Below, in pieces: positions 2-50,085 of a stretch of DNA of 64,000 nt (within the stretch, counting starts at the first letter, position 1; each line of letters begins with the position of its first letter). Location of the stretch: NCBI GenBank assembly GCA_000091205.1, contig AP006494.2. One strand, 5' to 3'. The stretch is from Cyanidioschyzon merolae (Eukaryota). The translations under genes and the position numbers were made by a program. The notes beneath the pieces were generated by a model, which was not told where the DNA came from, did not search any database, and saw only the letters and a list, made by a program, of their open reading frames with translations.

Positions 2-3000
2 GACTCGCAATATATTCAGAAACGCGAGGAACGCCGACGGGATGCGCCGAGTTCTGTAGCCGGTGGTCTGCGCAAAGGACTCGTCTCTTTCGGCTATGAA
101 ATGCGAACCGCGGTAACCGGGCTGGTACGCGAGCCGTACCGTGGCGCACAGGCGGGCTCGGTTTCGCGAGGCATTCGCCGCGCTCTCGTGCAGGCAGTAA
201 TCCGCCCTGCGAATGGTTTCCTGGACCTCATCATGCATCCAGCAGCGAGCCTTGGTGCTCGTCCACATTACCAGCGTCTGCCGGCCGGGAGACGGGTCCG
301 GCCGCCGCGCTGCTTTGGACCTGGCCTTCGACTTGTGCCCTACTGCTTCGAGGATGCACAAGGCAACGATCTATTGTGGCGTCTGTTGGTGCGCAAAGCG
401 ACCTCATCGGCGAGCGACCCGTACCCGAACCTCGAGTTCTACGTGGGTATGGTCCGCGTAAGCGCGTCAGCGATCTACGAAGCAGCACCTCCGCAGAGCT
501 CGACTGCAGCAGCCACTCGCGCCTTTGCACTGGAGCGGCTCCCATTGGGGCCGCGTTACGGTGTGGTGCTCGTATCCACCGAGTCCATTTACGGTCTCGT
601 GGTTCATTCCGAGCGTCCGAGCAAATTTCAGTCCATCTGGCAGGTTCCCTGGTCGGAAGTGGTGCAGGTTGTCGAGAGCCTGCCCGCGAGTCCCGCCGTG
701 GTCAAGGTACTTCATTCAGCAGCACCATCATACCATCGTTTTTGGCAGCGCATTCGCAATCGTTATGCGATGGAGCGGGTTCAGCGGCTCAGCGAAGAGC
801 TCGAAAAACGCCAGGAACGCGTCAAAGCTACAAAAGCTGCCGCGACGCCAGCCACTCCACGGACAGCGGCTCTGGCGCGCAGTCAGCGCAGTGCAGCGGT
901 GCAGCAACTGCGCATCGAGTGCGCGTCCATTGCTCAGCGGGATGAATTGCTTCAGATGTTGCGGCAAGTGTTCTGTACGGTTGCCCGTGGCCGACTGTTG
1001 ACGAGTCAGGCGTCAATGGCGCCACCGTCGCCCGGTTGCACGTTCCGTCTGGACGCTGCCGGAAAGCGCGAAACCGAATCGCGTCCTTCTACGGACGCTC
1101 TATCGATAGCAACCGTAGCTGATCAGCATGAACGGAGCACGCTCTACTCCAGCGGATCGGCAAAGCCTCGTGCCGCGAATACGAATGTATCCAATTTTAA
1201 GAGCGGGCTGCCGCCGGTGGCCAGTACATCGGCACCGCCACTGGTGCGCTCAGGCCGGGTAGAGTCAGAGCCAGATGCACCGGAACCGGGCTCGATTTCT
1301 GCCGGCATTGCCGACGTTATGAGCTCGGAAAACGCCCACGGACTGTCCGCGAGCAGTGGCAGGTCGGATGGTGAGAGCCTCAGTCCAGTGGTGCGCGTGT
1401 CAGCGTGCGCTACTGCTTCCGTTGCGGGGCCAGAGCGGGGCGTTGCAGCCGAATGCTCCGCACAGCCGCCAATTGAGACACCAACCTGGTACGCGCTGGA
1501 CAGCTCCCAGCCGCCGCTTCCATTAGCGGAATCGACTGGCGGGACGGGGGTCGCTTCTGGTGTTGTTGGAGTCCCCGTCGCGAACACAATGGGATGCGTG
1601 ATTGAGAACCGGTCCGACACAACCTTTGTTCTGGTTTGGCAGTATCTTGATGGAGGATTCTTCCTGCAGGAAGCGCCGCCAACGATCTATGCGCAATCAC
1701 GAGCGAAATTTGTGATCTACCGCGCGGCACAACCGCCCAAAAGACGGTCACCGTTGCGGCGGCAGCGGCAACGTCAGCTGGAGCAACATCTGCCAGCAAC
1801 GTCGTTCGAGTCCGCTGCCATTGCCACTGGAGCGTTCGCAGCGCCCGGTGCAGTGCGCGGTTCCAGCGACGTAGCGCCGGACATGCCTCGAAGCTCAGAT
1901 ACGGCGCTCGTTCCTGAGCAGCATTTGCGTGCTCGTCAGGTGCAGCGGCAGCGGCGTCGCGACCAGCTGGGCCTGCGAAAGCTCTCTGGCATTATCCTGT
2001 ACGCATTGGCAGATCCCGATGACCAGCAAGCGATCTACGATGAGCGTCGCTGGATAACGCTCGAGTTTGGCGTTTCGCGTCGTGCGGTGCCGCGCGCGCA
2101 TGTGCGCTGTCCACCGCCCATGGTCTCGACGCTGCTATTCCAGCGAGCGGCGAGTGCGCTGCAAATGCTGTGCGTGCTTGAGGCAATGGAGACGCCAACG
2201 AAAACGGATCGCTCGACAGCGTCATTGCCGACGTCAGGGGCGCTGAGCTCATCAGCTGCTGACGCCGCAGGACGTGCTTCAACGAGCTCGGAACGGAGTC
2301 TCCGTTGGCGAAAACGCAGCCCTGCGGCTCGGAGAGAGAGGCTGCAAAATGCCCGAATAGTTGCATCGGAGGCGGCGGTTCAGAGCCATCACGACGCTGC
2401 TTCAGTCTTGTCGTCGACTTCGTCTGATTCCGACGACATTGATGTGGAGAGGAGTGTCCTCGAGAGCTATGAACCCAGCACGATTATGGGGCCGCCCGAG
2501 TCGCACAGCATGGCCACTCGAGTGGCCGCGTCTGACGACCCGGTGTTGCCCGCGCCTGCAAGTCGCGAGCCCGAGGCGTCAAGGCCGCGTTCGCGCAGCC
2601 ACTCGCGCCCCGGAGAGCGCCTCCGATCATGGCTGAGACGGCGCGGCGCTGCTGGAGCCTCAGCCACTGTCCCTAGCCGGTTGGATAAGCTCGCAAATAC
2701 CCAATCGGCTCGTGAGGGGACTGCGACCGCCGGCCTTTCGCTGACGGCGTCACAGGCGTTGACCACAGCAGCATCCCCGGACTGCACGGCACTGAATTAC
2801 GAAAAGGGTGTCGGCGAGCGTGAGCCAGACCTCCAGCGACAGTGTGACCGCGCACTACAAGCGACAGCAGCTGTAGAAGAAACAGAAGCAGATGAAGCAA
2901 ACGCGCGGGCTCCGGAGGGTTGCACCATCCGCGTTGCTGCCGAGGTTCACAGTGACTCTGAGGACGGCTATTTAGACGCACCACTGGCACTCGAAGATGC

Positions 3001-3013
3001 CGACCCCATGTAA
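2..3013 (+). CDS. C-terminal part of a large VPS13/chorein-like protein (gene continues upstream of window); long Ser/Ala/Arg-rich low-complexity tail
   Basis: Reading frame is open from position 2 with no stop before the first ATG at 101. The N-terminal segment 'GLRKGLVSFGYEMRTAVTGLVREPYRGAQAGSVSRGIRRALVQAVIRPANGFLDL' matches the repeated G-x-x-KG-x-VG-x-V-x-KP-x-x-G-x-x-DL pattern of VPS13 C-terminal regions. The remainder is low complexity. Confidence 0.35.
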   Translation, partial: DSQYIQKREERRRDAPSSVAGGLRKGLVSFGYEMRTAVTGLVREPYRGAQAGSVSRGIRRALVQAVIRPANGFLDLIMHPAASLGARPHYQRLPAGRRVRPPRCFGPGLRLVPYCFEDAQGNDLLWRLLVRKATSSASDPYPNLEFYVGMVRVSASAIYEAAPPQSSTAAATRAFALERLPLGPRYGVVLVSTESIYGLVVHSERPSKFQSIWQVPWSEVVQVVESLPASPAVVKVLHSAAPSYHRFWQRIRNRYAMERVQRLSEELEKRQERVKATKAAATPATPRTAALARSQRSAAVQQLRIECASIAQRDELLQMLRQVFCTVARGRLLTSQASMAPPSPGCTFRLDAAGKRETESRPSTDALSIATVADQHERSTLYSSGSAKPRAANTNVSNFKSGLPPVASTSAPPLVRSGRVESEPDAPEPGSISAGIADVMSSENAHGLSASSGRSDGESLSPVVRVSACATASVAGPERGVAAECSAQPPIETPTWYALDSSQPPLPLAESTGGTGVASGVVGVPVANTMGCVIENRSDTTFVLVWQYLDGGFFLQEAPPTIYAQSRAKFVIYRAAQPPKRRSPLRRQRQRQLEQHLPATSFESAAIATGAFAAPGAVRGSSDVAPDMPRSSDTALVPEQHLRARQVQRQRRRDQLGLRKLSGIILYALADPDDQQAIYDERRWITLEFGVSRRAVPRAHVRCPPPMVSTLLFQRAASALQMLCVLEAMETPTKTDRSTASLPTSGALSSSAADAAGRASTSSERSLRWRKRSPAARRERLQNARIVASEAAVQSHHDAASVLSSTSSDSDDIDVERSVLESYEPSTIMGPPESHSMATRVAASDDPVLPAPASREPEASRPRSRSHSRPGERLRSWLRRRGAAGASATVPSRLDKLANTQSAREGTATAGLSLTASQALTTAASPDCTALNYEKGVGEREPDLQRQCDRALQATAAVEETEADEANARAPEGCTIRVAAEVHSDSEDGYLDAPLALEDADPM

Positions 3014-3142
3014 GGAATCCTGTATATGTTCGATAAACGCATCACTGGTGTGAATTTTTTTCATTGGCGATTGCGAATGACATGAAAAACAGGAAAGCTG
3101 TTTACCAAGTAACAAGCTCGGACGCTGATATTATTGCGTAGA

Positions 3143-3350
3143 GACACGCATGCAATGATGCTGTGCTGTCCCGAATGCATGCAGCTACACGCATGCAATG
3201 ATGCTGTGCTGTCCCGAATGCATGCAGCTACACGCATGTGATGATGCTGTGCTGTCCCGAATGCATGCAGCAACACGCATGTGATGATGCTGTGCTGTCC
3301 CGAATGCATGCAGCAACACGCATGCAATGATGCTGTGCTGTCTCTCGATC
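3143..3350. repeat. 43-bp minisatellite, about 4.7 tandem copies (unit acacgcatgcaatgatgctgtgctgtcccgaatgcatgcagct), rich in GCATGC palindromes
   Basis: Direct tandem repetition is visible in the sequence, with minor variants (caatga/tgatga, cagcta/cagcaa) between units. It lies in the intergenic space between two convergent genes. Confidence 0.9.
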
Positions 3351-18894: not shown

Positions 18895-21800
18895 TCACAA
18901 AACGCCAAACATTTTCTTCAGTTTCAAGACGAGCTGCCAGTCATCTTTCGTAAGCTCGTCTCTGTAGAGCTCTTTCAGCAAATCAATCGCTTTCCGTGTG
19001 ATTCGGCTATATAGTTTGAAGGTGTGATCGAATTGTCGGCCGTACATCACATGGCTTGTTTGGCGACTGCTTACTTTGATGGCCACCAGATCTCCCCGGC
19101 GAGCTTGCGTAACGGATTTCTTGTTGGATTCGATGCTCAGCACCCGTCCAATGTCAACCATGCGACTCGTTTCCTCGTGCACAGCAACGAGACTCGAGCC
19201 ACAGCGAAGGATGCCCTCGTCGATGCGCACACCCAGAATCAGTGGATCCCGTTTGTTGAATATGCTGTCTGGCAGGATCGTTGCACAAACGGGAAAGACA
19301 ATATCCACCTCTGCATCTCGTTTCTTCCGCTCTTTCACTTGCTCCATATACTTTCGGAAGTGATCGAACAAGTGATAGATGATGTCCGCGGTGAAAATCT
19401 GGACTCCGAGGTTCTCCGCCTCCTCGCGCGCTTCCCGTTCCACTTTCACATCAAAAGCTAAAATAACGGCATACTCAGGTCTGTGTTCCAGCATGGTTGA
19501 GGCTCGAACTACATCACGTTTGTGGACTGGACCGATATTCACACCGCTGACAGGAATCTTTGCATCCTTGCGGAGAAACTCCAGTAGTGCCTCTAGCGAA
19601 CCGAGCGTGCTCGCCTGCACATACACGCCCACGCCCGAGGTGTCCACGGCAGCAAGGGTTGTGCTCAAATCAGCCATTACTTCTTCTTTGAGATACTCAA
19701 TTTCATCAGGGTTCCGAGCCACAAACATCTGCGTCCCAGCGACGGCTTTCTCGAGGCCCTCGGCACTGATCTTGACGCCCTGTGCTGCCTCAATGCGCTT
19801 ATGGTGGATATATTGCCCCTTGACTCGCAATTCCTTCATTGGATGCGGCGTCAGTAAAGCTCGAATGGTTGTGACGATGGGTCCATCCAGCCCGCACACC
19901 ACAATCGTGTCGGCCTCGTGGAGAGCGCCCCCAGTGAGCACCACATCGATTGTCGTTCCGAGGCCGTCAATGACTTTCACCTCCAGAACCGTGCAGTACA
20001 CAAAGTCTATGAACTTGAGACGCTCTACAAGCAGCCGCTGTGGAAGCTGAACAAGCAGCATCAGCAAATCGGGAATGCCCTCGCCGCTGATTGCCGAAGT
20101 GGGCACCAGGGATAAATTCCGCCGATAGTCAGTGTTCTCCCAGTATAGCTCCGCATTAAAGCCGATTTCCGCGAAGGCGGTCTTCGTTTCCCTTACCCGG
20201 CGCTCAAACTCAGCAGCAGTCGACGGATTCTCTTCCAAAGCCTGCCGAATGGGGGCCATCGGGCAAGGCTTCCAACCGTATAAGCGATCCACCTTGTTCA
20301 ATGCCACGATAAAAGGAGTCTTCCGCATCTTCAAGAGCTCAATCGATTCAAGCGTCTGCTGTTCGAGCCCATGCATGATGTCCACAACGAGGATGGCGAT
20401 ATCGCACAACGACGAGCCCCGAGAGCGCAAATTCGTGAACGACTCATGCCCGGGGGTGTCGATGATCAGCAACGACGGAATTCGGTACGTCAGCTCGGGG
20501 TTCACTTTCGCTGCTTCCTGACGAACCGCTTCAATAGGGAAATAGGTAGCACCAATTTGCTGCGTAATGCCGCCAGCCTCACCCTCTTGAACATGGGTGT
20601 GCCTTATTTTGTCCAGTAACTTGGTTTTCCCAGTATCCACGTGTCCCAGGATGCAAATAATTGGTGAGCGCAGTCGATCAGCGGACGCAGCTGTCCGTGC
20701 AGCAGCCTCATCAGCAAGGCGTTGACGCACAGCGAGCTGTCGGCGCTCTTCTGCGCTAAGGGCAGGGCCTGAGGGCTGCACCCGAGCTGGCTCACTGAAG
20801 CGCACCTTGCCCGAAATGGCTTCTTTCTGCTCAGCGTCGTCGTCGACACCGCTTTCTGAAGCAAGCGATAGCACGTGCTCGTCTTCTCCAGAACCCGAAT
20901 CACTGAATGCATCCGTCAAGTGCGCTTCGAAGCTATCAGGCACAGCCGCCACTCGGGCATCGCTGGCAGCTGCGACTGTTTTAGTCGAGTCGGAGGCCGT
21001 TGCAGCAACCTGCGCTGCCGCCTTGACACCTGTAGAGGTCGTCTGCTCCGAGTCCGTGCCAGTCGGGTCCTTGGGCCTGGGTTTCTTCTTGCGGTCGTCA
21101 TAGACTCTTTTTGATCGTTTGGTCGCTTCTTGCGGGAGCGTCGCTGCAGCGATTGCACCGCTTGCCATGCTCAGTTGAATGAATGCTTCTACGCGTTGCT
21201 TTCGTTGACGTTCACTCTTCGACAAGAGCTTACCCTCGCGACGGAGCTGCTCGCGACGGGCTCGTTCGGCCTCCTTCTTCTGACGTCGTTCCTCTTCTCG
21301 TTGTCGCGCCTCTTCCTCTTCCCGTTGCTGACGCTCGCGCTCGCGGGCCAGGCGGTCCTCCTCTTCTTGACGGCGCCGTTCCTCTTCCTCTGCTCGTCGC
21401 TGCTGCTCTGCCAAGATACGACGAACGATCGCCTTACTCGCATTGGAAGGAGCACTGGATGGCAGCTCACTGGATTCGGCTACTGCCTCAGCTTTTTTTG
21501 AAGCTTCCTTCTGCTTCTTCTTCAGCCGCTTCTTTTGTGCAGCCGTCAGTTGCTGACTCTGTGCCTCTCCGACATGATTCCGGTCCTCTATCTGCGCTTC
21601 CGCAATACGCTCCTCAGCTGCTGATTGATCCGACAAAGACTGAGTTTGATCTACAACTGTGCCAGCTTGCGACGTATGCCGATTTTTCGGATCCGAGACG
21701 GGAGACGCCCCGGGTGATTCTTGCGCAGCAGGTCTCTCTTGCACCCGAGGTGCATCGCCACCTGCAGATACCACCTGCTCCCCGTGCTGGGCTTCATCAG

Positions 21801-22692
21801 CCTGGCGACTGGCAAGGTCTGACGCATCGTGCCTTTCTGCAGCTTCTGCTGCAAGCAGCTCTTCGAACGATGCGTCTTGATCGTCGATTTCCTTCTGAGT
21901 AGCTTTTTTGGCCTTCCGTTTCTGTTTCTTGCTCGATTTCGTCTTTGTGGATTCCTCCTCAACTGCTTCGAGCTCCGCGAGAATGGCCTCAATTTCGGCA
22001 TCTTCCTCGTGCGACACCCCCGTATTCCCTTTCTTAGCGGAGGAGGAACGTTTGGTTGTCGTGTTGCGGAGAGCATCTGTGGGTGTCCAGGTACTGGGCA
22101 CCGCACCGGCCCGCGCATAATTCTTCTCTTTCGAAGTTGTCCCTGAAATCTCTGTTCCCGAACTAGTGCCGATCGCGTTACGAAAATCTTGCGGAACCGC
22201 AAGTGCCCCCGAGGCAGGGCTTCGTGAACCGTTCAACGAGGTATTATCACCGGTCCTACCACTTCGCCTGTGACTCGACCGGGTCGAATCGCTGCTCTGG
22301 GCGTCATCAGCGTCGGAGTTACCCTCGTCCGAGAGGCCAAGTGCTGAGAAAGCTGCAAATATGGAATTTCCTGGAGCGCTTTCGCCTATCCCAAGGTCTT
22401 CGTCGACGTCGGCGGGTCTCGGAAGCTCCCGCGAGACCCCGCGTCGACCGCGTTCCGGACGGTGAACTGTCTCCGTCTTAAGGTCTGACAAGCTTTCCTT
22501 ATTTCGTTTCCCCCTAGAGGCGTCAAGAGAAAGAGTAGTGACTCCCTCGTTCCCTAAAGATTGTCGGTGATCAGTTACGTTAAAAGTGGAGTCCTCTCCG
22601 TCTAGTGCTGGTAAAGCGGGCGCTCCAGACTTCTTCTTCTTCGCCTTTTTACCGCCCTTGACGGCCACAGGCATCTCTATATCCGGTTCCAT
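18895..22692 (-). CDS. EIF5B: Eukaryotic translation initiation factor 5B (eIF5B / IF2 homologue), single exon
   Basis: 1265-aa ORF. Lys/Glu/Arg-rich N-terminal half, then a GTPase domain 'SPIICILGHVDTGKTKLLDKIRHTHVQEGEAGGITQQIGATYFP', 'DTPGHESF', 'NKVDRL' and the full eIF5B domain II-IV architecture. Confidence 0.95.
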   Translation of the reverse strand: MEPDIEMPVAVKGGKKAKKKKSGAPALPALDGEDSTFNVTDHRQSLGNEGVTTLSLDASRGKRNKESLSDLKTETVHRPERGRRGVSRELPRPADVDEDLGIGESAPGNSIFAAFSALGLSDEGNSDADDAQSSDSTRSSHRRSGRTGDNTSLNGSRSPASGALAVPQDFRNAIGTSSGTEISGTTSKEKNYARAGAVPSTWTPTDALRNTTTKRSSSAKKGNTGVSHEEDAEIEAILAELEAVEEESTKTKSSKKQKRKAKKATQKEIDDQDASFEELLAAEAAERHDASDLASRQADEAQHGEQVVSAGGDAPRVQERPAAQESPGASPVSDPKNRHTSQAGTVVDQTQSLSDQSAAEERIAEAQIEDRNHVGEAQSQQLTAAQKKRLKKKQKEASKKAEAVAESSELPSSAPSNASKAIVRRILAEQQRRAEEEERRRQEEEDRLARERERQQREEEEARQREEERRQKKEAERARREQLRREGKLLSKSERQRKQRVEAFIQLSMASGAIAAATLPQEATKRSKRVYDDRKKKPRPKDPTGTDSEQTTSTGVKAAAQVAATASDSTKTVAAASDARVAAVPDSFEAHLTDAFSDSGSGEDEHVLSLASESGVDDDAEQKEAISGKVRFSEPARVQPSGPALSAEERRQLAVRQRLADEAAARTAASADRLRSPIICILGHVDTGKTKLLDKIRHTHVQEGEAGGITQQIGATYFPIEAVRQEAAKVNPELTYRIPSLLIIDTPGHESFTNLRSRGSSLCDIAILVVDIMHGLEQQTLESIELLKMRKTPFIVALNKVDRLYGWKPCPMAPIRQALEENPSTAAEFERRVRETKTAFAEIGFNAELYWENTDYRRNLSLVPTSAISGEGIPDLLMLLVQLPQRLLVERLKFIDFVYCTVLEVKVIDGLGTTIDVVLTGGALHEADTIVVCGLDGPIVTTIRALLTPHPMKELRVKGQYIHHKRIEAAQGVKISAEGLEKAVAGTQMFVARNPDEIEYLKEEVMADLSTTLAAVDTSGVGVYVQASTLGSLEALLEFLRKDAKIPVSGVNIGPVHKRDVVRASTMLEHRPEYAVILAFDVKVEREAREEAENLGVQIFTADIIYHLFDHFRKYMEQVKERKKRDAEVDIVFPVCATILPDSIFNKRDPLILGVRIDEGILRCGSSLVAVHEETSRMVDIGRVLSIESNKKSVTQARRGDLVAIKVSSRQTSHVMYGRQFDHTFKLYSRITRKAIDLLKELYRDELTKDDWQLVLKLKKMFGVL

Positions 22693-22751
22693 GACAGTAT
22701 CTACGTGCGCTTTACGTACACTGCACCGCCGCGGACACCATCAACGCCGTT

Positions 22752-25192
22752 CTAGGTCGAGCGACGCCAACCGTGCACAGTAGTGGCGAGAAAGCCGTCC
22801 CAGACGGGGCGTCGCCAACCGACGTGCAGACGCCCCCCAGTATTTTTGGACCGGCCACCTACGGCTGCTTCCAACTTCTTCTCATATAGTTCCACTTTGA
22901 GAGGTTGTCCAATAAAGTTCGCTCTTGGCAAGTACGGAGGTCTGTTCTCCAGCATCGCACATCTCCTTATATTGATAGCGGCGTTTAAGTCACGGTTCAC
23001 AACTCCATCCGTTTCTTGCCATCATTAGTTGTGCTAATCAATGCGAGTAGTCCACGAACTTTCGCCCTCCTTTCCATTTGCTCCTCCGTCAGCGGTCCGT
23101 ACTTTTTTATATCCTCAGGGCTCCTCTGGCACTTTTCCATCTCCACTCCCTGAAGTGTACGACCCAGCTCATGGTGTGTATAGGACGTTCGGAACTCATC
23201 TACAGGTATCGTAACGAAACGCCGTGCACACTCTTTGTACGTTCTTGTCGTTGGAGCTGGCGTTGTTCCTTTTTGGGTCTTCCAGCGCCCTGCTCCATAA
23301 GCCACTACGAGCCTCTGATTTTCATCCTCCTTGAGGGCACTCAACTGATTGAAAAAATTCGCGAACGCGCGCTGCCTCCCACCGTGTAGATTCATTCGCA
23401 GACGAGCCCACCGGGGCTTTGTATACTCCTCCCACAGAGCATCCCAATGCGCAACACGAACTTCCATGAATTTCCGAAAAACTTCAAAGTCCGCTCCGCG
23501 GCTCGTCACCTCGCTCATAGCTTCCAGGTGATCCTTCATTCCTGAATTCCAAGTCTCGATTTTCTTCCTCGCATTCATTATACCAGATTCTCGATAGCAT
23601 CTCGCTCTCGAGAACCTCAAAAGACGCATGTCTTTCTGACGTACGTTACCATCAGTACCATCTTCCGCAAGCTTGGGTATTGCGATGGTGATGATATTCG
23701 TGTTCCCAGGGTCCGCGCCAACGACAAAGTCGTCATCGTGCACTTTCTGCATCGCAGGATCCGCCTCCTTCTTTTCTTCGTGCTTCACCGCGCCAACGAC
23801 AAGGTCGTCATCCTCCACCTCCTGAATCGCAGGTTCGGCCTCATTCTCATCTTCATGGTTCGCCGCGCCAACGACAAGGTCGTTATCCTCCACCTCCTGC
23901 GTCGCAGGACCCGCCTCCTTCTCATCTTCATCCTTCGTCACGTCAACGACAAAGTCGTTATCCTCCACCTCCTGCGTCGCAAGATCCGCCTCCTTCTCAT
24001 CTTCATGGTTCGCCGAGGGCGGAACTGGCCGATCTTTCTTCAACCGCCGATAGTGTACACACAAGGCTACTCCATCGATTTCGATCATCCCAGTGAACAA
24101 CTTTTGCTTGTTCACTCTCAGACGTTTGAAATTGGAGACGTTCTTCAAGTACGTCTCCCGGTTTTCGCCGGTGAAGTTCTCCCTGCTGACACTGAACTCC
24201 GGACTGATGTCCCTCATGATGCCGTAGAGGACGCCGGAGTCGATAGTCACAAAACGTGACTTGATGTTGCACATTGGAACCACGTCGAAGCGCTTCCCCA
24301 TTAGGAAAGCCTTCCGTCTCTCCCACTCTTCATTTTTTTTCTCACTCACCTTCGTTTCTGCCTTGCGTTCGAGCTCTCGGTCCAGAAACACGAAATATCG
24401 CAGGATGAGGCGATAGTATCTTTCCTTATCTTTTTCAACGCTGATATCTTGTCTGTTGGATACGCCAGCCCCAGTACCGCACGATGCTCTTTTATAGCCG
24501 CACGGATCGCAGAAGCTGCATCCGTGTTCTCGTTTGGCGCCTTCTTGTCGACAAATTCGACCTCATCTTCATGCTTGCGATCGCTCGTGATGCCGTTGAT
24601 CATCGCCCATTTTCCATTGCGAGAGATGTCCGGAGACAACGCAAACACGGCGCGTACCATGAAACGTTCGAAGTTCTCTGTCAAATGGTTCTTCAGGTTC
24701 GTGGGGTACTTCATCGCCCCGTACGTGTAAATATCCCGGTCACCCTTGTATCGAGTACCATTGAAGCTGTAAAGGGGATATTTTTCGTGGAGGGCGCGCA
24801 CCCGCTCATTTTCCCTCCGCACTTCCCCTGTGCCGAGCATCAGCTGACGAATAAAGGTTTGTCGAAAAACTTGTCTGGAATCTCGACCGTTTCCATGTTC
24901 GCGACGTCTTCGTACATCTCCCTTGCTAAATGCATCAGTCCTGACGACGCCTTTATAATATTCTTGGAGTATGACGCAACACGTTTTTCGATAGCGTCTC
25001 GCAACTTTTCCCTGTACGGATCCTTGATATGTCCAAGAAGAAAGGTTTTCACCACCACCTCGTCGCACAGTTGTCTCTCGTGCCGCCTTCGACGTAGGAG
25101 CTCCGCCTTTCGGTCCTTCTTCTCTTCCTTTTCTTCTGGACTCGGCACTATTTTTTTCTGGCAGCCGGCGAACCTGGGCCTCCAGGATCGTG
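22752..25192 (-). mobile_element. Near full-length Fanzor1/TnpB-like (OMEGA, RuvC-type RNA-guided nuclease family) transposon gene, about 810 aa conceptual product, interrupted by about four single-base frame slips; ORF pieces 25148-24840, 25068-24346, 24391-22997, 23000-22752
   Basis: RuvC-I-like '[17 protein letters not shown]'. RuvC-II region 'RLVVAYGAGRW', with the canonical Glu absent at this position, as reported for Fanzor1. The zinc-finger position reads 'DEFRTSYTHHELG', i.e. His-rich and lacking CxxC. RuvC-III 'VNRDLNAAINIRR', followed by 'RPPYLPRANFIGQPLKVEL'. Frame switches occur at an A7 run (about 25160), a T5 run (about 24860), an A8 run (24333-24340) and a GG site (about 22998). 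Each is consistent with a single-base indel. Confidence 0.6.
23719..24020 (-). repeat. 4 x 75-bp in-frame tandem repeat inside the Fanzor-like ORF, encoding a 25-aa unit (…[23 protein letters not shown]…) that duplicates the segment immediately preceding the RuvC-I motif
   Basis: The DNA units gacaa(g/a)gtcgt(c/t)atcctccacctcctg(a/c)(a/g)tcgca(g/a)g…ctcatcttcat… are directly visible. Translated units are '[25 protein letters not shown]', '[25 protein letters not shown]', '[25 protein letters not shown]' and '[11 protein letters not shown]'. Confidence 0.85.
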
Positions 25193-26559
25193 CAATTGCT
25201 TTTTCATAGCGTTCCTTTTTTCGTTTTTTTATTTTTGTATTTCTTGAACGCTCTTTAAACCCTTCTGTTATATACTGCGAAAAAACATTTGACTAGACTT
25301 GTTAAAAGTTTGAAACAAAAACGAACTGAAAACTATATTTTTGTTCGACTCCAACGCGAATACAACTTTTACAGCTGAACAACACACCAGAGATCAGGAT
25401 CGCGTTTCCCTTCAGCGGCGGCACGCGCGTCGTGTCGTATGCCTGCCTGATCTCCCAGGAACGCTCACTTAGCGCACTGCGTGCACCGCGCGAGACGCCT
25501 CACCGATCGATGAAGGACACGTGTCCGACACCCCGCCTTGGCACGTGCGTGTTCGCATCGCGCTGGAGCGAAAATCAGGTGTCGTAGCTCGGAAACTCAC
25601 GTAGAGTAATCTCTTGCTATAGGCTCTGTCGCTGGTGCGCGTCGCGGTGCCGCCCTTGACATACAAGGTAATATTGGGGCCTGGCACGATACCTCGCGAT
25701 GATTCCAGCTGGCACGCTCCGCCATGATCGATCATCTGGAGCACGGCGAGGCGCCCGGGCGAACGCAGGCGCAACCCAGCAAGAGGAAGACGTCATGGTA
25801 GAGCATTGTTGAATCTAACGAAGAATCCCCGAGTGTCGGATGGTTACCAAGTGCTCAGGACCGCGAGTGTGATTCCTAATGGTGTAGGATTTTGGAATCT
25901 AACCTCTGATCCCCAATGATGTGATGGTTATCGGCATCCGGGAAGCAAGCCTACATGGCGCACCGAATCCTCCCAGTCCTCTTTACCGTTATCCAAGCAT
26001 TGATTCGGGGATAGCGGTCCGTCCACACGATCCTCCGTTCCAGCGACAGCATGGCGTCGCAGTGTCGCTGCGGATTCCCAGGCCGAACGTTGGCGAACGC
26101 AGCGGCTGGTCCGAGACTGCGATTCGCCTCTTGTAGTGAACACTCTCGAACTGGGCCAACCGAGCCCTACGAACGGATACGTTGATTCGCCAGCGCACGA
26201 CGGCGTCAAGGCGCTCGCACGCTCCATGACACGCGCTTTGTCCATGGACTGTATGTACGGACAAAATTGTACCCGCAGGTTCAGCACCGCGCAGTCCGAC
26301 TGTCGATTCCAGTAGGGATGCTGCACCAGGTTCTCCGTCTGCGAGCAGTGATTCGCATGCGAACAATAGACACACTGCTCTGGTCGAAGGTTGGGCGCAG
26401 TAGCAGGCGAATGGCGTGCGGCTGTGTATCGATTCCGCGCGGAGCGCTGCTGCAGGAACATTTGCCGGGTTCAGCGCGCTGGTCAGTACTCTATGCAAAG
26501 TTTTAGATGCTGTGCCTGCAGGAAGCAACTTGGCACTTTGTAGCCGACCGCAACGTTCA

Positions 26560-34380: not shown

Positions 34381-35770
34381 CCGCAGACGCCTCCTAGCCC
34401 TTTCGACCCGCCCACTGATATCGGCTCCAGCTCTTTCCTGGACGATTCGGGTCAAACAAGCTGCTCCACGAAGTTGGATCGCTTCAGCACCTCGCCTCTC
34501 GCCTTCAGCACAACATATCGTCTGGTATAGACAGCAGCGCTATACTTTCGGTTCACAAATTCCATGCCTTTATTTCCTCTGGATGGACTCACGTATGCAA
34601 GGAGTCCTCGCTCTCGTGCCCTCAGTGCCATTCGTCGTTCTGTCAGCTCTCGGTACTTTTCTGTCGCCGAAGCGCTCCGCCGCCTTATTTCCAGCTCGAC
34701 TGTCTGAAATGGACGTCCCAGCTCATTCCTGACCTTTTCAAAATGAGCACACCTCTTCGTGTCCCTCGGTGACAACCCTCCCAGAGGAACACGTACTTGC
34801 GGGCGAAAGACGACATGCGCCCCGATGTGTCACTGTGTGCTGAACGCTGCACCGATTCGCCCAGTGGAGCGATCGTTACGTTTCGCGATAGAAATCACTC
34901 CTTGGATGAGGTTGAACCACGGGCGCTACGGATGAATGGGAAGCAGGCCTAGACCTACAGAATCGGCAACGGCTCGAACGCAAACGGAATGGTGAAATAC
35001 CACATCGTCCACTCTGAGAACGTTGCAAGACGTGAAGGAATAGCCTTCGATGGTTTGACAAGGTGGTTGGTGCTGTTGTATGCAACCTCTCTACGAGCGA
35101 AAGCGAGGCAGCCTGTTGAGTCCGCGGCAGCAAGATTAGATGATGATGATGACGTCGCTCTCCTCGAGCTCGATCAAACATACTGCAGGACCCCGCCGCG
35201 AATATCCATGTCGGCTCCGACGGTTTCGTCTCAAGGAGGTCACATCGACTGAAAGAACAAACCGCGGTGTCCCTGTACTTTTTTTTACCGATCGCAGCGT
35301 TCCAGGAACTTTATCGTTGCGATTTCAGTGGAACATGTCCGTGACTAGACCAGCACTCTGTTTTGGCGATTGTTTCCCGGTCTTTTCAGAATCACACGAA
35401 CCAGCTGTTGAGAAACGGAGACGCCCCTGGTGTCTACTGTCTTCGCTTTTGCTCTCCGTACGCTGATCAACGGGTCGATTTTCTACCTGTGACCGCTAAT
35501 TGCCTTTGAGAAAATCGGTGATTGGCGCGGAGCACACGTACTTGTTTCTTTCAGTGTGCCGCAACCGTCTGAGCACTGTGGTATGACTGATCTGAACGAT
35601 GAATGCAGTCCTCCTTGCACTGTTCAGTAAAGAACATATCCGAGAGGAAATCCGTCCACGATCCATGCAGTACAATGCATCGTGATTTCGATGTCCTGCT
35701 ATACAGTCCTAACAAGCATTCGATTCCACGCAGCGGGGGGTTGGAACAGAACTGAGTTGAGAAGTAGAAA
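34381..35770. repeat. Segmental duplication A, copy 1 (about 1.39 kb; near-identical copy at 41928-43300); carries small conserved ORFs and the 200-bp dispersed module at its 3-prime end
   Basis: The ORF-track proteins are identical between copies (e.g. 'MSPRDTKRCAHFEKVRNELGRPFQTVELEIRRR…' at 34452-34775 and 41995-42318). The DNA aligns end to end, with only a few differences (an extra T-run at 35277-35286 and a few substitutions). Confidence 0.9.
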
Positions 35771-37879: not shown

Positions 37880-38400
37880 TCATTAAATGCTTGCTCGCAC
37901 TTTTTAGCAGATGCGTTCGATATACGTTCATTTCTACGAAAAGAAACTGTAACGGAAAGATAAGAATACGGATCTCAGGGATTTCAATTGGTCGCTATTG
38001 CCGATTGCCTGAGAAAACAAAAAAATCCTGTCCTTGCCGACCATCGAGCGACGGGGAGCATTTTACGACGACTACGGAGAAGAAAAGGGGGCATATGCCA
38101 GATGAGATGTTCGTCCCACGGGATGATGACGAGCCTGTCGTTGCACAGAGGCTGCGAGCTCGGAGAATCCCTGCATTGATGAGCACCATCAGCGTCAATA
38201 CAGGCAACAAGCTCATGAACGGAAACCTCAATGCCCCCATCAGTATCAAAAGATATGCGGTGCCGAAGACGAGACCATCGGAGCTGACTCGCGCAAACTT
38301 TGTAAGGCAGCATCCCAGGCTCGAAGTGTGCAGGGGGAGGCTGAAACCGACGATAGGGAACCGGTCGCAAAAAGGCTGGGAGGCGTATGCGAGCGGTCGT
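37880..38400 (+). mobile_element. 3-prime-terminal remnant of Fanzor/TnpB-like element (about 110 aa C-terminal RuvC-III region plus about 200 bp upstream), subfamily 1; paralogous to 45480-46000
   Basis: 'RRIPALMSTISVNTGNKLMNGNLNAPISIKRYAVPKTRPSELTRANFVRQHPRLEV' parallels 'RGLLALISTTNDGKKRMELVNRDLNAAINIRRCAMLENRPPYLPRANFIGQPLKVEL' of the 22.7 kb copy. About 93% DNA identity to 45688-45998, with weaker similarity upstream. Confidence 0.55.
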
Positions 38401-38451
38401 ATAAATGTTTACCCTTCCTTGTCGACGAACGTTTTCGTTTTGAGATCATAC

Positions 38452-40121
38452 TCATATTGACTATTTCGACACCAGTATCACTCATGAATCGCTCAGCAAA
38501 ATCATACGCGTTTTCTACAGATATGGCGCATCAACCGTCCGGGAGTGCTGAACAGCACCACGCCTGTCCCGCCTCTGGATGAGAATCATTCAATCACGCC
38601 ACGCATGACAGCCGATTCTTCCCAAGTCTGATTCGCCAGCGCTCGGGGACAACGCTCACACGGTATGCTGAACGATTTTCACATAGTTTCGCGCGACCCA
38701 AGCCTGCTGGACGCTTCGGCAGCTCGGCACATCTCCGGATGCTGATAAAGGCGTTGATGTCTCAGAGCAGCAAAAAAGGATCGCACGCATCGCTCCCGGC
38801 AGAAGAATCAATCCGTCACAGTCCGATCGCCTCGCACTGCGGCGTCTGCCATAGTCTGGTAAACTCGGCTTGCCCCGTTTCGGGCACCCAGCTCACTTCT
38901 ATGCTCGTCTTTACTCCCTGTTCCAGCGTGCACCAGTGCTCGTGGTGCGCGTGCGTCATCCTAAACGCGTCGATGGATACCGCACAGAACCGAGACATGC
39001 ACTCACACTGCGCTCTCGTCCACAGGGCACGAGTGCGGCCTCTGCACACAACAGCACATCCAGCGCTATAGGAAGCACCGAAGTGACGCGCATGATCGGT
39101 CGCTTCCATTTCGAGCGCACTGCACGAGCAGCTGAATACACGCTGCGTGCCGCCGTACAAAAGCGTCGTGGACGACGCGAGCGCGGTCCCAGGTACGCCC
39201 GCCACCGGTCTCCCGCATGTGGGACTCGGGCCTGCACTGGCTCTCCGAATGAAGCCTACAAAGCGTGACCCCCGCCTTGATACGGTGCGGGGCGCATCGA
39301 GACGCGCGCTGGCGCCTTCGTGACGCTGGCTCGTAGGCCCTCTGGCACACGTATTGCCCAGCCGCACATAGCACCGAGCACTGGAATCGCTGCGCAGCTT
39401 GATATGCGTTCTGTGCAGGTCTTTGGATACGTCCCGTCGATGTGGAAGCACCGCGACGGCCACGAGTGCCTTCGGTGTGAGACCCATGCGCATGCCAAAG
39501 GCTCTCTCTCCAACCACGATGAACGCTTCGCCGCGAGTCTCGCTGCTCGATTCAGGGCTCAGACTGGCAATATGCACGTAGACTGGTATTCCGTCGGTCT
39601 CCATGGTACCAGGAACCTGCTTTCCGTTTCCTCACTGTGAGCAGGCAACCCTGAACATGCTTCGTTCGTGCTCTTAGCAGCGTTGTCCACAGAGACCAGC
39701 GGTCGCTCTCTGCGCAGACTATGCAGTACACTGCAAGATTGTCGACCGCGACGCAGAGGAACTCTCGGCGACGCATATGGTGGCTGTCCCAGGTGGTCGC
39801 TAGAGGAGGCTGGGGCGCTCGCATTCGGAGAGCAAGGGCGCTTTTCTCTCGCGGAACCTGTTCATGCTGAGGCTGTAGCACAAGGTGCGAGGAGGGCACG
39901 TACCACGTTTCAACCAACCCGTGGGTACGATGTCCGTCGGTATCAGGCTGCCAGCAATACGATGAGCTTTGAGGATCGGGATCGACTTGTGCGCTCTCAG
40001 TGACGTTTCCTCGGAACTCGCGACCACCTCGATCGCTTTCGGCACCAGAAGCTCCTCATTGACCTTCTTCGATATGCGAAGCATTCTCTCCATGTGTCCC
40101 GACTTTTCTCAACCAGGAACC
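38452..40121. repeat. Segmental duplication B, copy 1 (about 1.67 kb; near-identical copy at 50086-51759); contains conserved minus-strand ORFs (40093-39800 and 39604-38816) of unknown function
   Basis: The ORF-track proteins are identical between the copies ('METDGIPVYVHIASLSPESSSETRGEAFIVVGERAFGMRMGLTPKALVAVAVL…' and 'MERMLRISKKVNEELLVPKAIEVVASSEETSLRAHKSIPILKAHRIAG…'). Only single-residue differences are seen (e.g. RLGNTCARGPTSQR versus RRGNTCARGPTSQH). Confidence 0.9.
38816..40093 (-). CDS. Hypothetical protein encoded within duplication B (possibly two exons: 40093-39800 and 39604-38816); second copy at 50448-51725
   Basis: The ORFs are conserved intact in both copies of the duplication. 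No confident family assignment; a faint resemblance to Iojap/RsfS-like or other small alpha/beta folds is not supportable. Confidence 0.25.
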
Positions 40122-40816
40122 TGAGGGTTTATCGCGCCGGCTGCGCGTTGCTTCTATTGCATATTTGCTCGATGGACACGCTGCTGGTGTCTTTTTGCGG
40201 CAATACCAAGGTGAAACAGTCATATAATTCAGCGCGGGATCCAACACAAAATTCTTCTACTTTTTACGCCGGTCTGATCGCACCGTGTGCTACAGGCAAG
40301 AGCGGAACGCTCTAACAGACGAAAGCTTATGGATGATTCCGGGTCCTCTACATACATACGCCTGCTTTATGTCGCGCAAAACCAGTGCCCAACCATTGAA
40401 TGGGCTACAAACTCACGCAAGTCGCTGCTGTGAGCGCTTCCGTGTTAGAGTTTCACCATTGAATTCCGAGGCTTCTCTCTATCGCATACAATGTCACGAA
40501 GAACAGATCGTTTAATTTGCCTTTGCCAAACCTGCTCGTGTTCTTCCATACCAAGTCATTCTGCGGGATCGACATCAGGGCCATGCCTCCAAAGCAGCAG
40601 TTCTTTGACGATCTGGCAGAGCACAGTCCCAAAAGCCACCTTCGCGGGGACTGCATGCGCAACTATAGCATCCACTGGGCGCCAAGCGTTGCACCATTCG
40701 CAGAACACGCCAACAAAACCCCGCGCGAGCTGTCCAGTACCCGGCGTGACTGATCTGATGACAATCTCCTGCTTGCTTCCCGTGAAACGAAGGGATCCGC
40801 ACTGTCGGCCGCTCAT

Positions 40817-41695
40817 CTACTGTGCCTTACCTTCGATGACGCGATCAATCAGACCATACTCGACGGCCTCCTGCGCTGACATGAAATTGTCTCTGCTCAT
40901 ATCCCGGATCAGTTTTTCGTACGGTTGTCCAGTCATCTTCGAGTATTCGTACGTAAGTGCATCTCGAATGCGCAAAATCTGCTCTGCCTCAACTTTGAGG
41001 TCTGACGCCTGCCCTTGCGCTCCGCCGAGCGGTTGGTGAATCATGACCCGAGAGTGCGGCAGGGCAAAACGCTTGCCCTTCTCCCCGGCAGCAAGCAGAA
41101 AGCTCGACATAGACGCAGCAAGGCCAACGTTTATTGTCACGACCTCGGACTTGATATGTCGCATCGTGTCGTACACTGCAAGACCCGCTACTACGGAGCC
41201 TCCGGGTGAGTTGATGTAGAGATAGATAGGCTTTGTATTGTCCTCGGAGTCAAGATAGAGCATCACGGCGATAATTTGGTTCGCAAGCTCGTCGTCTAAC
41301 TCGCTCCCTAGAAAAATGATACGTTCTCGGTACATACGGTTGTAAATATCCACCCACTCAGCCTGAGTTCCTCCCGGAACACGAAAAGCGACTTTCGGCA
41401 CTCCGACTGGCATCATGTAGATCCGGGCGCTGGAACTGCGACTTTCCCGAACACGGAAAGTCCGCTTCGCACAACTCCGTTCACCTCCGTGCAAGAAGCT
41501 CCGATTATGCCAGCCTTCATAACCGCTTTGACGACCACCATACTTCCCCACGAACGGCGGGGTCGCGAAACCTAGAGAAGTCATTCCGTGTGCGTGCTTC
41601 CGTGAACAACCCACACGAACAAACGCTGCCAAATGCTTTATCCCCACAGCTCGTGGATCTTTCACACCCTCCTCGCCAGCAGCATGATATGACAT
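40817..41695 (-). CDS. clpP: ATP-dependent Clp protease proteolytic subunit ClpP with long N-terminal (organelle-targeting-like) extension
   Basis: '[102 protein letters not shown]' matches the ClpP core, including the catalytic Ser (GLAASM) and His (MIHQP) contexts. Confidence 0.9.
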
Positions 41696-41927
41696 TCGGG
41701 GAGTGCATCAACGTGCGGCGGCGGCGGTAGCGGCGGCAGCGGCGGTGTCATTACAGAGCGCAGCGCCCATCACTGCGATTGCGTGTGAGCGATGGTGCCC
41801 TAAAGAGATCGCTGTGCACTGTTTCGGTCATCATCCCTGATGCCTCTGTGTCGATGTTTTCTCGTAGATGTCAGCAAAACGATAGACGCTTGACAGCCAT
41901 AGAGGGTATATGTATCTACTCGCATGC

Positions 41928-43300
41928 AGACGCCTCCTAGCCCTTTCGACCCGCCCACTGATATCGGCTCCAGCTCTTTCCTGGACGATTCGGGTCAAAC
42001 AAGCTGCTCCACGAAGTTGGATCGCTTCAGCACCTCGCCTCTCGCCTTCAGCACAACATATCGTCTGGTATAGACAGCAGCGCTATACTTTCGGTTCACA
42101 AATTCCATGCCTTTATTTCCTCTGGATGGACTCACGTATGCAAGGAGTCCTCGCTCTCGTGCCCTCAGTGCCATTCGTCGTTCTGTCAGCTCTCGGTACT
42201 TTTCTGTCGCCGAAGCGCTCCGCCGCCTTATTTCCAGCTCGACTGTCTGAAATGGACGTCCCAGCTCATTCCTGACCTTTTCAAAATGAGCACACCTCTT
42301 CGTGTCCCTCGGTGACAACCCTCCCAGAGGAACACGTACTTGCGGGCGAAAGACGACATGCGCCCCGATGTGTCACTGTGTGCTGAACGCTGCACCGATT
42401 CGCCCAGTGGAGCGATCGTTACGTTTCGCGATAGAAATCACTCCTTGGATGAGGTTGAACCACGGGCGCTACGGATGAATGGGAAGCAGGCCTAGACCTA
42501 CAGAATCGGCAACGGCTCGAACGCAAACGGAATGGTGAAATACCACATCGTCCACTCTGAGAACGTTGCAAGACGTGAAGGAATAGCCTTCGATGGTTTG
42601 ACAAGGTGGTTGGTGCTGTTGTATGCAACCTCTCTACGAGCGAAAGCGAGGCTGCCGGTTGAGTCCGCGGCAGCAAGATTAGATGATGATGATGACGTCG
42701 CTCTCCTCGAGCTCGATCAAACATACTGCAGGACCCCGCCGCGAATATCCATGTCGGCTCCGACGGTTTCGTCTCAAGGAGGTCACATCGACTGAAAGAA
42801 CAAACCGCGGTGTCCCTGTACCTTTTACCGATCGCAGCGTCCCAGGAACTTTATCGTTGCGATTTCAGTGGAACATGTCCGTGACTAGACCAGCACTCTG
42901 TTTTGGCGATTGTTTCCCGGTCTTTTCAGAATCACACGAACCAGCTGTTGAGAAACGGAGACGCCCCTGGTGTCTACTGTCTTCGCTTTTGCTCTCCGTA
43001 CGCTGATCAACGGGTCGATTTTCTACCTGTGACCGCTAATTGCCTTTGAGAAAATCGGTGATTGGCGCGGAGCACACGTACTTGTTTCTTTCAGTGTGCC
43101 GCAACCGTCTGAGCACTGTGGTATGACTGATCTGAACGATGAATGCAGTCCTCCTTGCACTGTTCAGTAAAGAACATATCCGAGAGGAAATCCGTCCACG
43201 ATCCATGCAGTACAATGCATCGTGATTTCGATGTCCTGCTATACAGTCCTAACAAGCATTCGATTCCACGCAGCGGCGGGCTGGAACAGAACTGAGTTGA
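41928..43300. repeat. Segmental duplication A, copy 2
   Basis: See copy 1. Lies between the ClpP and DEAD-box helicase genes. Confidence 0.9.
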
Positions 43301-43647
43301 AAGACTATAACCGCGGATCGGGTCGCGCGGTCTGTACTTCGGCCTGAACTGCAAAGTTCTGGAGGCACGACTAACAATATTGCTGTTCTACATACTTTGA
43401 TCAGCAAGTTCCTCGTTTTACTTGGAAAGGCCATCGATTGGCAACCACAGCGGGCAGGACGACAGCCAAACGAACATTTCAACAAACGATATAGTACAGA
43501 ACTCCGTCCAGCTCTGGCTCACGTTACCTGGTCAACGAACACTACGGCCGTAACCAGGAAAGGTACGGTCTGAACTTGTGAAGCAAGCGACGCAGTGTTC
43601 GGCGGGCGCTTTGAGCTTATTGGGAGCTTGGGCACAGCACCTGCATT

Positions 43648-45479: not shown

Positions 45480-46000
45480 AGGTGCGTGTCATCAAATGCA
45501 TTTTCGCCATTTACAGCAGATGTGTTCGAAGTGCGTTCATTTTGTAGAAAGAAAAGGCCATGAGATAGGTATGGACGTTGTAGTCGGGAATCCTGGAGGA
45601 CCGTCATCGCCCGGTTCGACATAAATGCGAAAATATCCCCTTTTCGCCAACCATCAAGCGAAGAAGCGCAAATGAAGAAGCTGAAGAGGGGCAATATGCC
45701 AGAAAAGATGTTTGTCCCACGGGACGATGACGAGCCTGTCGTTGCACAGAGGCTGCGAGCTCGGAGAATCCCTGCATTGATGAGCACCACCAGCGTCAAT
45801 ACAGGCAACAAGCTCATGAACGGAAACCTCAACGCCCCCATCAAAATCAGAAGATACGCGGTGCTGAAGACGAGACCAGCGGAGCTGACTCGCGCAAACT
45901 TTGCAGGGCAGCATCCCAGGCTCGAAGTGTGCAAGGGGAGGCTGAAACCGACGGTAGGGGGCCGGTCGCAAAAAGGCTGGGAGGCGGCGTCTGCGGATAG
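45480..46000 (+). mobile_element. 3-prime-terminal remnant of Fanzor/TnpB-like element, subfamily 1 (paralogue of 37880-38400)
   Basis: 'MPEKMFVPRDDDEPVVAQRLRARRIPALMSTTSVNTGNKLMNGNLNAPIKIRRYAVLKTRPAELTRANFAGQHPRLEV'. Lies immediately downstream of the helicase gene. Confidence 0.55.
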
Positions 46001-49699: not shown

Positions 49700-50085
49700 T
49701 TCATGCCTATTTATCCATCATTTTTCTGGTGATCGGCTAGCGCGCGCCCCCTATGGCATAGCGATCAGAGCAGGTCGCCGCCACTGCCGCCTCCAGCGTG
49801 ATGCAGGCAGCCGCATCACAGCTGCGACTGGAGCATCACCTAAGAATATCAGCAGTGCTGCATTCCCAACTGCGTACACGGAAACGAAGCGACGGTCACC
49901 AATAGTATGCTTGTACACACGATTCGAAGAGGACCACTGCTACAGTCCAATCCAGAGATTGTTCGAGAAGCTGAGAAACAGGCTTTTAAGAAACGTCATA
50001 GGATATTGTGCACCGCTGACGCCCTTAGTGCCCCATTGTAGGTGAGAGCGCCGGTCATGAGCCAGAAAGGATCGTATGCTCTCTA

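Follow-up and report, generated by a model that had tools for sequence, protein, structure and literature searches.

A decayed copy of the Fanzor1 transposon CMe-1A upstream of eIF5B in Cyanidioschyzon merolae

A broken minus-strand gene on chromosome 12

The window, that is, the whole stretch of 64,000 nucleotides analysed here, lies on chromosome 12 of Cyanidioschyzon merolae 10D. Its ORFs exactly match the C. merolae 10D proteins BAM80750-80766, and none of the annotated 10D proteins found comes from the locus described below. This locus encodes a TnpB homologue of the Fanzor1 type, which has a DPG motif and a rearranged glutamate and whose finger is degenerate. The reading frame on the minus strand starts with an ATG at 25207 and ends with a stop codon at 22754-22752; it is divided into five pieces by four breaks, and the repaired protein is 819 aa long. 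The initial annotation had described a minus-strand gene in pieces, which was correct, but its extent (25192-22752, approximately 810 aa) has to be replaced by these values. The features of the locus are as follows, from 5' to 3' of the element.

About 22736..25478, minus strand: CMe-1A copy, a Fanzor1-only element, delimited by blastn to the consensus and homology to other copies
25208..25330, minus strand: AT-rich 5' leader or promoter region, element-internal and conserved between copies
25151..25207, minus strand: ORF piece 1 (MKKQLHDPGGPGSPAARKK), whose TAG end results from the A7 frameshift
24861..25150, minus strand: ORF piece 2 (IVPSPEEKEE...IPDKFFD), the basic N-terminal region and the start of the REC/WED part
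24431..24855, minus strand: ORF piece 3 (FIRQLMLGTGEV...KISALKK)
23003..24430, minus strand: ORF piece 4 (DKERYY...DGKKRME), bearing RuvC-I, the RuvC-II Gly and the alternative Glu
23713..24015, minus strand: 75-bp tandem repeat, 4.0 copies, acidic 25-aa units that end in the first RuvC-I strand
23176-23003, minus strand: degenerate TNB/finger remnant within ORF piece 4
22752..23000, minus strand: ORF piece 5 (VNRDLNAAINIRR..., RuvC-III), stop TAG at 22754-22752
22745..22766, minus strand: 3'-terminal hairpin (CGTCGCTCGA-CCT-AGAACGGCG), 8/10 pairs, partly degraded; candidate element-end or omega-RNA stem
22690..22692, minus strand: ATG of the host eIF5B gene (BAM80756.1)

The AT-rich stretch at 25200-25330 had been regarded as an element terminus or promoter. 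It aligns to about 790-905 of the CMe-1A consensus, directly 5' of the ATG in the consensus, and copies remain homologous to one another beyond it, at least to 25452. Thus, it is internal to the element and is not its terminus, while a leader or promoter region remains a suitable description. The window ORF extends 16 codons beyond that of the consensus, because the consensus stop codon TAG is TGG in the window copy.

Identity with CMe-1A and position upstream of host genes

Sequence comparison revealed that the element belongs to CMe-1A. In blastn, consensus positions 671-2193 correspond to window positions 25452-23941 with 82% DNA identity, and 2117-3145 correspond to 23792-22765 with 90% DNA identity. 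Over 732 positions, the repaired protein shares 79% identity with the CMe-1 protein as published. CMe-1A was described by Bao & Jurka in 2013 (Mobile DNA 4:12; PMC3627910) as a Fanzor1 family without TIRs whose copies, about 150 in number, each show about 80% identity to the consensus; the Repbase consensus is 3169 bp long and encodes a protein of 734 aa, and according to these authors some copies in 10D keep an uninterrupted ORF of about that length. Therefore, the assignment to the Fanzor1/TnpB family in the initial annotation is borne out by the match to a published Fanzor1 consensus, but its reading of the locus as a notable nuclease family is not: CMe-1A had already been catalogued in the C. 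merolae genome in 2013, and the locus is neither a new nor an active RNA-guided nuclease gene.

Like the consensus, the window copy lies in the C. merolae genome, has a single-exon Fanzor1 ORF as its sole gene, lacks TIRs and carries the finger region TSYTHHELGC…EKCQRS. It differs in lacking the 5' 635-bp TE-N2_CMe module, in its four frameshifts and in the loss of the stop codon of the consensus; moreover, it has 4.0 units of the acidic 75-bp repeat whereas the consensus has one. Consensus 1-635, which is the TE-N2_CMe module, had no match anywhere in the window, and homology starts at about 646-671. Another copy, L003, does have the module. Homology to the copies L002-L006 spans from 25451/25516 to 22735-22762, and the 5' boundary of the window element is uncertain, lying at 25478 or as far out as 25516. 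Fifteen inverted repeats were found, none of which is a terminal inverted pair. A metagenome scan yielded 195 relatives. Among the best 80 Yellowstone loci, the longest ATG-to-stop ORFs are 722-747 aa and lack the N-terminus. We conclude with high confidence that the window element is one old, decayed copy of the known CMe-1A, which now drifts neutrally.

It was also observed that CMe-1A copies strongly tend to lie immediately 5' of host genes and in the same orientation as these. At 37 non-redundant related loci, the first ORF of at least 200 aa beyond the 3' end shared the strand of the element in 29 cases and had the opposite one in 5, and its ATG was usually within 300 bp; these counts come from simple-script calls on metagenome contigs, with near-duplicate loci removed by eye.

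The 3' end of the window element is 43 nt from the eIF5B ATG, with both on the same strand, and the insertion near eIF5B is common to Yellowstone strains, in which it occupies the orthologous locus. Together with the 29 to 5 strand ratio, this would fit the idea that the DNA rather than the protein has been co-opted, such that the 3' part of the element serves as the eIF5B promoter or 5' UTR and copies lie directionally upstream of host genes. However, the bias might reflect a preference for certain insertion sites, or selection, in a compact genome, against insertions elsewhere, and we consider such co-option unlikely, although it is compatible with a decayed CMe-1A copy as the best explanation.

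Catalytic motifs and loss of the reading frame

The RuvC motifs are present as had been described, including a RuvC-II without its canonical Glu. In Fanzor1 proteins, the RuvC-I aspartate is located in a DPG motif (PMC10711439), and an inert residue takes the place of the canonical RuvC-II Glu, while an alternative Glu is provided elsewhere (PMC10530073, PMC10711439). In the window, RuvC-I is VVGADPGNT (Asp codon at 23713-23711); both its D and its G reach at least 90% conservation in alignment A3, and 168 of 175 relatives have a DPG-like motif. RuvC-II is RLVVAYGAGRW, with Gly (23296-23294) at the position of the canonical TnpB Glu. The alternative Glu is found in VDEFRTS (codon 23197-23195), six residues before the first finger-ligand position (VD-E-FRTSYT-H); it is at least 90% conserved and corresponds to E593 of P0023, an intact relative. 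RuvC-III, in VNRDLNAAINIRR, contains RDLNAAINI (Asp codon at 22991-22989), and its R, D, N, A and N hardly vary in the same alignment. The catalytic D/E/D are thus all still present in the window copy.

Profile and structure checks, which had been proposed along with the family assignment, gave different answers. Neither the separate ORF pieces nor the repaired protein had a significant match in Pfam or NCBIfam, where just the last 11 residues of PF07282 were hit (E 0.3-0.47), and PDB sequence searches with the repaired protein and with a close-relative profile retrieved no TnpB or Fanzor. The structure was predicted for P0023, which is 46% identical, rather than for the window copy; P0023 has a confident predicted fold, and its best matches are solved Fanzor1 structures. 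The relationship to TnpB and Fanzor is apparent only via structure and via Pfam matches in distant relatives. PF26935 (DUF8286), a domain of unknown function, has precomputed matches on many close and distant relatives. SpuFz1 (8GKH), PpFz1 (9CF1) and GtFz1 (9CER) share the bilobed REC/WED/RuvC/TNB fold seen in P0023, the DPG motif, the alternative glutamate just before TNB, the RD-NAA helix and a length of 600-750 aa. In contrast, sequence identity to them is only 12-17%, the TNB region here is without the CxxC…CxxC zinc site, and the window copy is a pseudogene. Compared with prokaryotic TnpB (IS200/IS605, IS607) and Cas12f, the protein has Gly for the canonical RuvC-II Glu, a much larger REC part, a eukaryotic host and no TnpA partner.

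Measured against related copies and the published consensus, each of the four frame breaks amounts to a net loss of 1 nt.

25152..25158, minus strand: frameshift 1, an A7 run, specific to strain 10D; the orthologue L007 is in frame, with A8
24859..24860, minus strand: frameshift 2, a lost G in GACAA[G]ACC, likewise specific to 10D
24431..24436, minus strand: frameshift 3, A5 for the family consensus A6 (TTGAAAAAAGATAAGG), common to L007
23001..23002, minus strand: frameshift 4, a lost T/C in GAGTT[C/T]GTGAAC, common to L007 and L008

The interruptions had been read as single-base slips, which is correct, and an A7 run does lie at break 1. The T5 run does not account for break 2, which is a lost G, nor does the A8 run at 24340 account for break 3, which lies at about 24431-24436. 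At the site of frameshift 1, more distant copies carry 7 more bases. The ORF contains no in-frame stops besides those caused by the shifts.

L007 and L008 represent the same locus in separate Yellowstone metagenome projects and are 98.85% and 99.5% identical to the window, respectively; L008 has 0 gaps against the window over 4.7 kb. Private frameshifts number two in L007 and two in 10D. The pN/pS is 0.92 for the Fanzor1 ORF versus 0.24 for the neighbouring eIF5B, and conserved residues carry private substitutions (Y to C in ARYY, Y to H in LYGG, W to L and H to R). Because shifts recur in independent assemblies, each lineage has private ones and pN/pS is 0.92, the window Fanzor1 gene is dead.

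This result overturns the suggestion that the gene is nearly intact and carries assembly indels. That an intact gene in the organism was broken by four assembly or sequencing indels might seem to follow from four net 1-nt deletions each lying by a short run, and from L007 being in frame at 25152-25158 and 24859; frameshifts 1 and 2 alone, sited by short homopolymers, could in principle be sequencing errors. However, the shifts at about 24436 and at 23001 are identical in L007, and the latter in L008 too, although these assemblies differ from the window by 0.5-1.2%; L007 has two further private shifts, and the ORF evolves neutrally. In addition, the 10D genome is reportedly Sanger-finished and gap-free (Nozaki et al. 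2007), and would lack long-read homopolymer errors. The indel explanation is largely refuted, and we regard it as extremely improbable.

The finger-less clade, its history and the 3' hairpin

The finger region of the window copy is TSYTHHELGR...EKCQRS, with His at C1, Leu at C2 and no CxxC pair, and the published CMe-1 consensus agrees with it in all three respects. PF07282 matches the window protein with E 0.3. In the motif of Bao & Jurka (PMC3627910), [TS][TS]-x-x is followed by a C4 zinc finger (OrfB_Zn_ribbon) and then by RD. CxxC plus CxnC is kept in only 12 of 175 distant relatives. The initial annotation had correctly noticed a His-rich, Cys-poor sequence at TSYTHHELG…KCQRS, but this marks neither a peculiar copy nor a new family, since the 2013 consensus and most of the clade are alike. 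Within the CMe-1 family the lack of a finger is the ancestral condition, and it is common in a very large clade. The literature consulted contains no discussion of zinc-finger loss in Fanzor1, which is not proof of its absence. There is no His/Cys tetrad, because the second finger-ligand position is Leu here and Asp or Thr in relatives. Hence, despite the His at the first ligand position and the retention of the element at the orthologous position in Yellowstone relatives, a domesticated derivative kept by the host, possibly with a new metal-binding site, is hardly credible for a multi-copy transposon (195 metagenome relatives; about 150 copies in 10D, PMC3627910) whose ORF is neutral and broken differently in each lineage.

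The Fanzor1 clade around CMe-1 comprises 7045 clusters at 50% identity (E<=1e-3), most of them full-length proteins of 600-650 aa. Since the catalytic triad persists in the finger-less clade, the zinc site of TNB is evidently not needed for whatever keeps these ORFs intact. The CMe-1 clade retains the DPG/alternative-Glu/Asp set and has progressively lost the TNB zinc ligands; it is possible, though still doubtful, that intact members are zinc-independent active nucleases and that the directional placement of CMe-1A hints at targeted insertion or promoter donation. If so, searches that require CxxC…CxxC would miss finger-less RNA-guided nucleases. These readings do not concern the dead copy in the window, a locus that itself matters little, being a decayed copy of a family known since 2013. 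The clade, in turn, may be useful to Fanzor researchers, as it is very large, mostly unannotated and retains the catalytic triad.

For the decayed CMe-1A copy, the following history may be proposed. CMe-1A is a C. merolae transposon of roughly 3 kb, without TIRs, whose sole gene encodes a Fanzor1 protein. Homology suggests an omega-RNA-guided RuvC nuclease as the ancestral protein, bearing the Fanzor signature (DPG RuvC-I, RuvC-II Gly, alternative Glu in DEFRTS and RD-NAA RuvC-III); the four zinc-binding cysteines of its TNB domain were already gone, as they are in most of the clade. The insertion, 43 nt before the start codon of eIF5B, predates the divergence of 10D and the Yellowstone strains; frameshifts and substitutions of conserved residues followed, and the copy now drifts neutrally.

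Cheap leads on how TIR-less, Fanzor-only elements move or persist come from the conserved hairpin at the 3' terminus and from the placement of copies close to promoters on the same strand. The initial annotation had proposed to look for an omega RNA around the 3' end of the ORF, and the hairpin might represent one. Rfam gave no match in the whole window, and RNAalifold of 46 element 3' ends gave no consensus structure. When each end was folded separately, the hairpin was found in 39 of the 46 copies, in two sequence variants; it is seen only in this way because the two variants pair in different registers.

CMe-1A membership and genomic placement

The minus-strand element at about 22736-25478 belongs to CMe-1A, the one Fanzor1 family named in C. 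merolae (Bao & Jurka 2013, PMC3627910). CMe-1A numbers about 150 copies, which individually share about 80% identity with a consensus of 3169 bp; it lacks TIRs, its TSDs are undetermined, a single exon encodes a 734-aa protein (CMe-1), and the 5' 635 bp are common to TE-N2_CMe (PMC3627910). The consensus, taken from Additional file 2 of the same paper (PMC3627910), aligned with the window copy in two segments:

Consensus 671-2193: window 25452-23941, 82% identity
Consensus 2117-3145: window 23792-22765, 90% identity

The repaired protein, in which the five ORF pieces are joined across the frame breaks, is 79% identical to the CMe-1 consensus protein over 732 positions. The TE-N2 module of the consensus is absent from the window copy, and a search for terminal inverted repeats in this copy found none. 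The family is already known, and the window copy is an ordinary decayed member. The AT-rich stretch at 25200-25330, initially annotated as a terminus or promoter, has counterparts in other copies and at consensus positions about 790-905, directly 5' of the consensus ATG. It is internal, forming the 5' leader or promoter region of the element, and is not a terminus. About 40 bp are common to the window copy (25478-25516) and the related locus L006 (337-380), upstream of the start of homology to the consensus and to loci L002 and L003, which suggests an alternative 5' module in CMe-1A copies without TE-N2_CMe.

Eight ORFs of the window match strain 10D proteins in BAM80750-BAM80766 exactly, among them CYME_CML163C and eIF5B (BAM80756.1, window 18895-22692), which places the window on chromosome 12 of C. 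merolae 10D. Homology shared with other copies stops at about 22736, 43 nt 5' of the eIF5B ATG. Directional placement closely 5' of host genes was also observed for CMe-1A copies (3' flanks of the metagenomic loci L002-L086; window 22692-22736). Among 37 non-redundant loci, the next ORF of at least 200 aa past the element 3' end shared the element's strand in 29 and had the opposite orientation in 5, and its ATG was typically <300 bp from that end.

Fanzor1 assignment and finger region

The minus-strand frame runs from an ATG at 25207 to a TAG at 22754-22752 in five pieces with four frame changes, and the joined product is 819 aa. All motifs quoted in the initial annotation were found in this frame: the RuvC-I-like motif, RLVVAYGAGRW, the finger-region stretch VDEFRTSYTHHELGR…EKCQRS and the RuvC-III motif VNRDLNAAINIRR. 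They agree with the published Fanzor signature, in which RuvC-I carries DPG, the canonical RuvC-II Glu is replaced by an inert residue, and an alternative Glu stands 6 residues ahead of the first finger ligand (PMC10530073, PMC10711439). The consensus stop GTCTAG reads GTCTGG in the window copy (22755-22805); the last ORF piece is therefore 16 codons longer and terminates within the terminal hairpin loop. The frame also contains a tandem repeat:

23713-24015: 75-bp tandem repeat, 4 units, 85% matches

It codes for acidic 25-aa units that terminate within the first strand of RuvC-I. There is 1 unit in the published consensus and 1 to about 6 in related copies, as against 4 here.

Pfam and NCBIfam searches gave no significant match for the ORF pieces or the repaired protein, the sole match being to the final 11 residues of PF07282 (E 0.3-0.47), and PDB sequence searches gave none. 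PF07282 did match 12 of 46 aligned relatives (best E 4.8e-6). Homology searches first yielded 23 close relatives and subsequently about 40 proteins of full length (590-700 aa) with 33-56% identity to P0023, an intact relative 46% identical to the window copy; in a profile search, 7045 cluster representatives passed E<=1e-3 and 966 passed E<=1e-30. P0023 was modelled with AF2 (pLDDT 87.8, pTM 0.85), and the model matched PpFz1, SpuFz1 and GtFz1 best in Foldseek (E 7e-18 to 4e-14; TM 0.54-0.70 over about 690-800 columns), and Cas12 families ranked after these Fanzor1 structures. The catalytic residues D, E and D hardly vary across the relatives' alignment. The CMe-1A match, the motifs and the Fanzor1 fold of this close relative thus bear out the proposed Fanzor1/TnpB-like identity, with the catalytic triad kept in the family. 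By analogy with SpuFz1 and GtFz1, whose biochemistry is established (PMC10432273, PMC11423790), the ancestral CMe-1 protein would have bound RNA from the element 3' end and cleaved DNA that matches the flank.

Finger ligand positions were assigned by counting 6 residues from the alternative Glu. The window copy has His at C1 and Leu at C2. In 175 more distant relatives the residues were:

C1: H 35%, Y 18%, C 17%
C2: D 49%, T 33%, C 7%
C3: C 66%

The finger region lacks any Cys in 32 of the 175, and only 12, mostly more distant, lower-scoring members, retain both CxxC and CxnC. The published CMe-1 consensus finger is the same as that of the window copy except for ELGC, with Cys where the window copy has Arg. 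This residue spread and the shared consensus indicate that finger loss is graded and clade-wide. The zinc site is absent; model confidence in this region of P0023 is fair. The His-rich, Cys-poor finger is thus degenerate, as had been suggested, but not specific to this copy, and it does not constitute a His-based replacement metal site.

Decay of the reading frame

The initial annotation raised the possibility that the frame breaks are assembly indels in an intact gene. A metagenome-contig scan revealed two contigs, L007 and L008, each from a different Yellowstone project, in which the orthologous locus is present together with eIF5B; Ga0078972 is a Yellowstone metagenome (PMC8986864). L007 is 98.85% identical to window 27838-19500, and L008 is 99.5% identical to 24199-19500 with 0 gaps.

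Frameshifts in strain 10D and the Yellowstone contigs
25152-25158 (A7 vs A8): 10D shifted; L007 in frame; L008 not covered
24859 (lost G): 10D shifted; L007 in frame; L008 not covered
24778: 10D in frame; L007 shifted; L008 not covered
About 24436 (A5; consensus A6): 10D shifted; L007 shifted; L008 not covered
24342: 10D in frame; L007 shifted; L008 not covered
23001 (lost T/C): 10D shifted; L007 shifted; L008 shifted

Because the breaks at about 24436 and 23001 recur in Yellowstone contigs, these two are real and ancestral, and the shifts private to 10D and L007 indicate that each lineage went on decaying independently. In the comparison of the window with L007, pN/pS of the Fanzor ORF is 0.92 (9.8 synonymous, 32.2 non-synonymous differences) and that of eIF5B 0.24; the element has diverged by 1.6% and eIF5B by 0.44%. 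The window copy also carries private changes at residues conserved in the family (ARYY to ARCY, LYGG to LHGG, W to L, H to R). The 10D genome is Sanger-finished and gap-free, which argues against homopolymer artefacts. The window copy is a pseudogene. Divergence between 10D and L007 peaks at 24500-25000, with 26 mismatches/500 bp (1-10 in other 500-bp bins).

The element 3' end and other remnants

RNAalifold found no consensus structure in 46 aligned element 3' ends. Folded one by one, 39 of the 46 form a terminal hairpin with dG <= -6 kcal/mol (median z -2.8 vs shuffles), in two variants with different pairing registers:

Variant 1: CGUCGUUCGA-CUU-UCGAACGGCG
Variant 2: ACGUUUUUC-UUUU-GAAAGGCGU

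The window copy retains 8 of 10 pairs; a short upstream stem, CGCCA…UGGCG, is more poorly retained. The hairpin could belong to an omega RNA, as its guide-proximal part, or act as a signal for transposition, and we regard it as a lead. Past the consensus end (…GGCG), most copies carry a GT-rich motif, about TTYGNTG (columns 94-103 of the 3'-end alignment; window 22736-22744), before similarity between their flanks is lost; the motif either places the true 3' end 7-9 nt beyond the published one or reflects a target-site preference.

Other Fanzor-like remnants were observed in the window:

38451-40128 and 50083-51760: 1.68-kb pair, 99.8% identical
34383-35764 and 41926-43303: repeat pair, 99.3% identical
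38085-38385 and 45684-45986: repeat pair, 93.4% identical
55761-56263, minus strand: further decayed CMe-1A remnant, internal deletion

Each member of the first pair holds a degenerate Fanzor-like frame with about 28% identity to the CMe-1 family. The frame is interrupted by stops, and its catalytic residues are gone (GERAFG for GADPG, IDAFRMT for VDEFRTS, *DINAF for RDFNAA). The next two pairs contain Fanzor-like fragments from the C-terminal part, with 40-47% identity to CMe-1 proteins; one of them, at 41932-42312, is about 240 nt 5' of the ClpP gene (40817-41695) and shares its strand. The 55761-56263 remnant matches consensus 2840-3084 and 841-966 at 69-74% identity.
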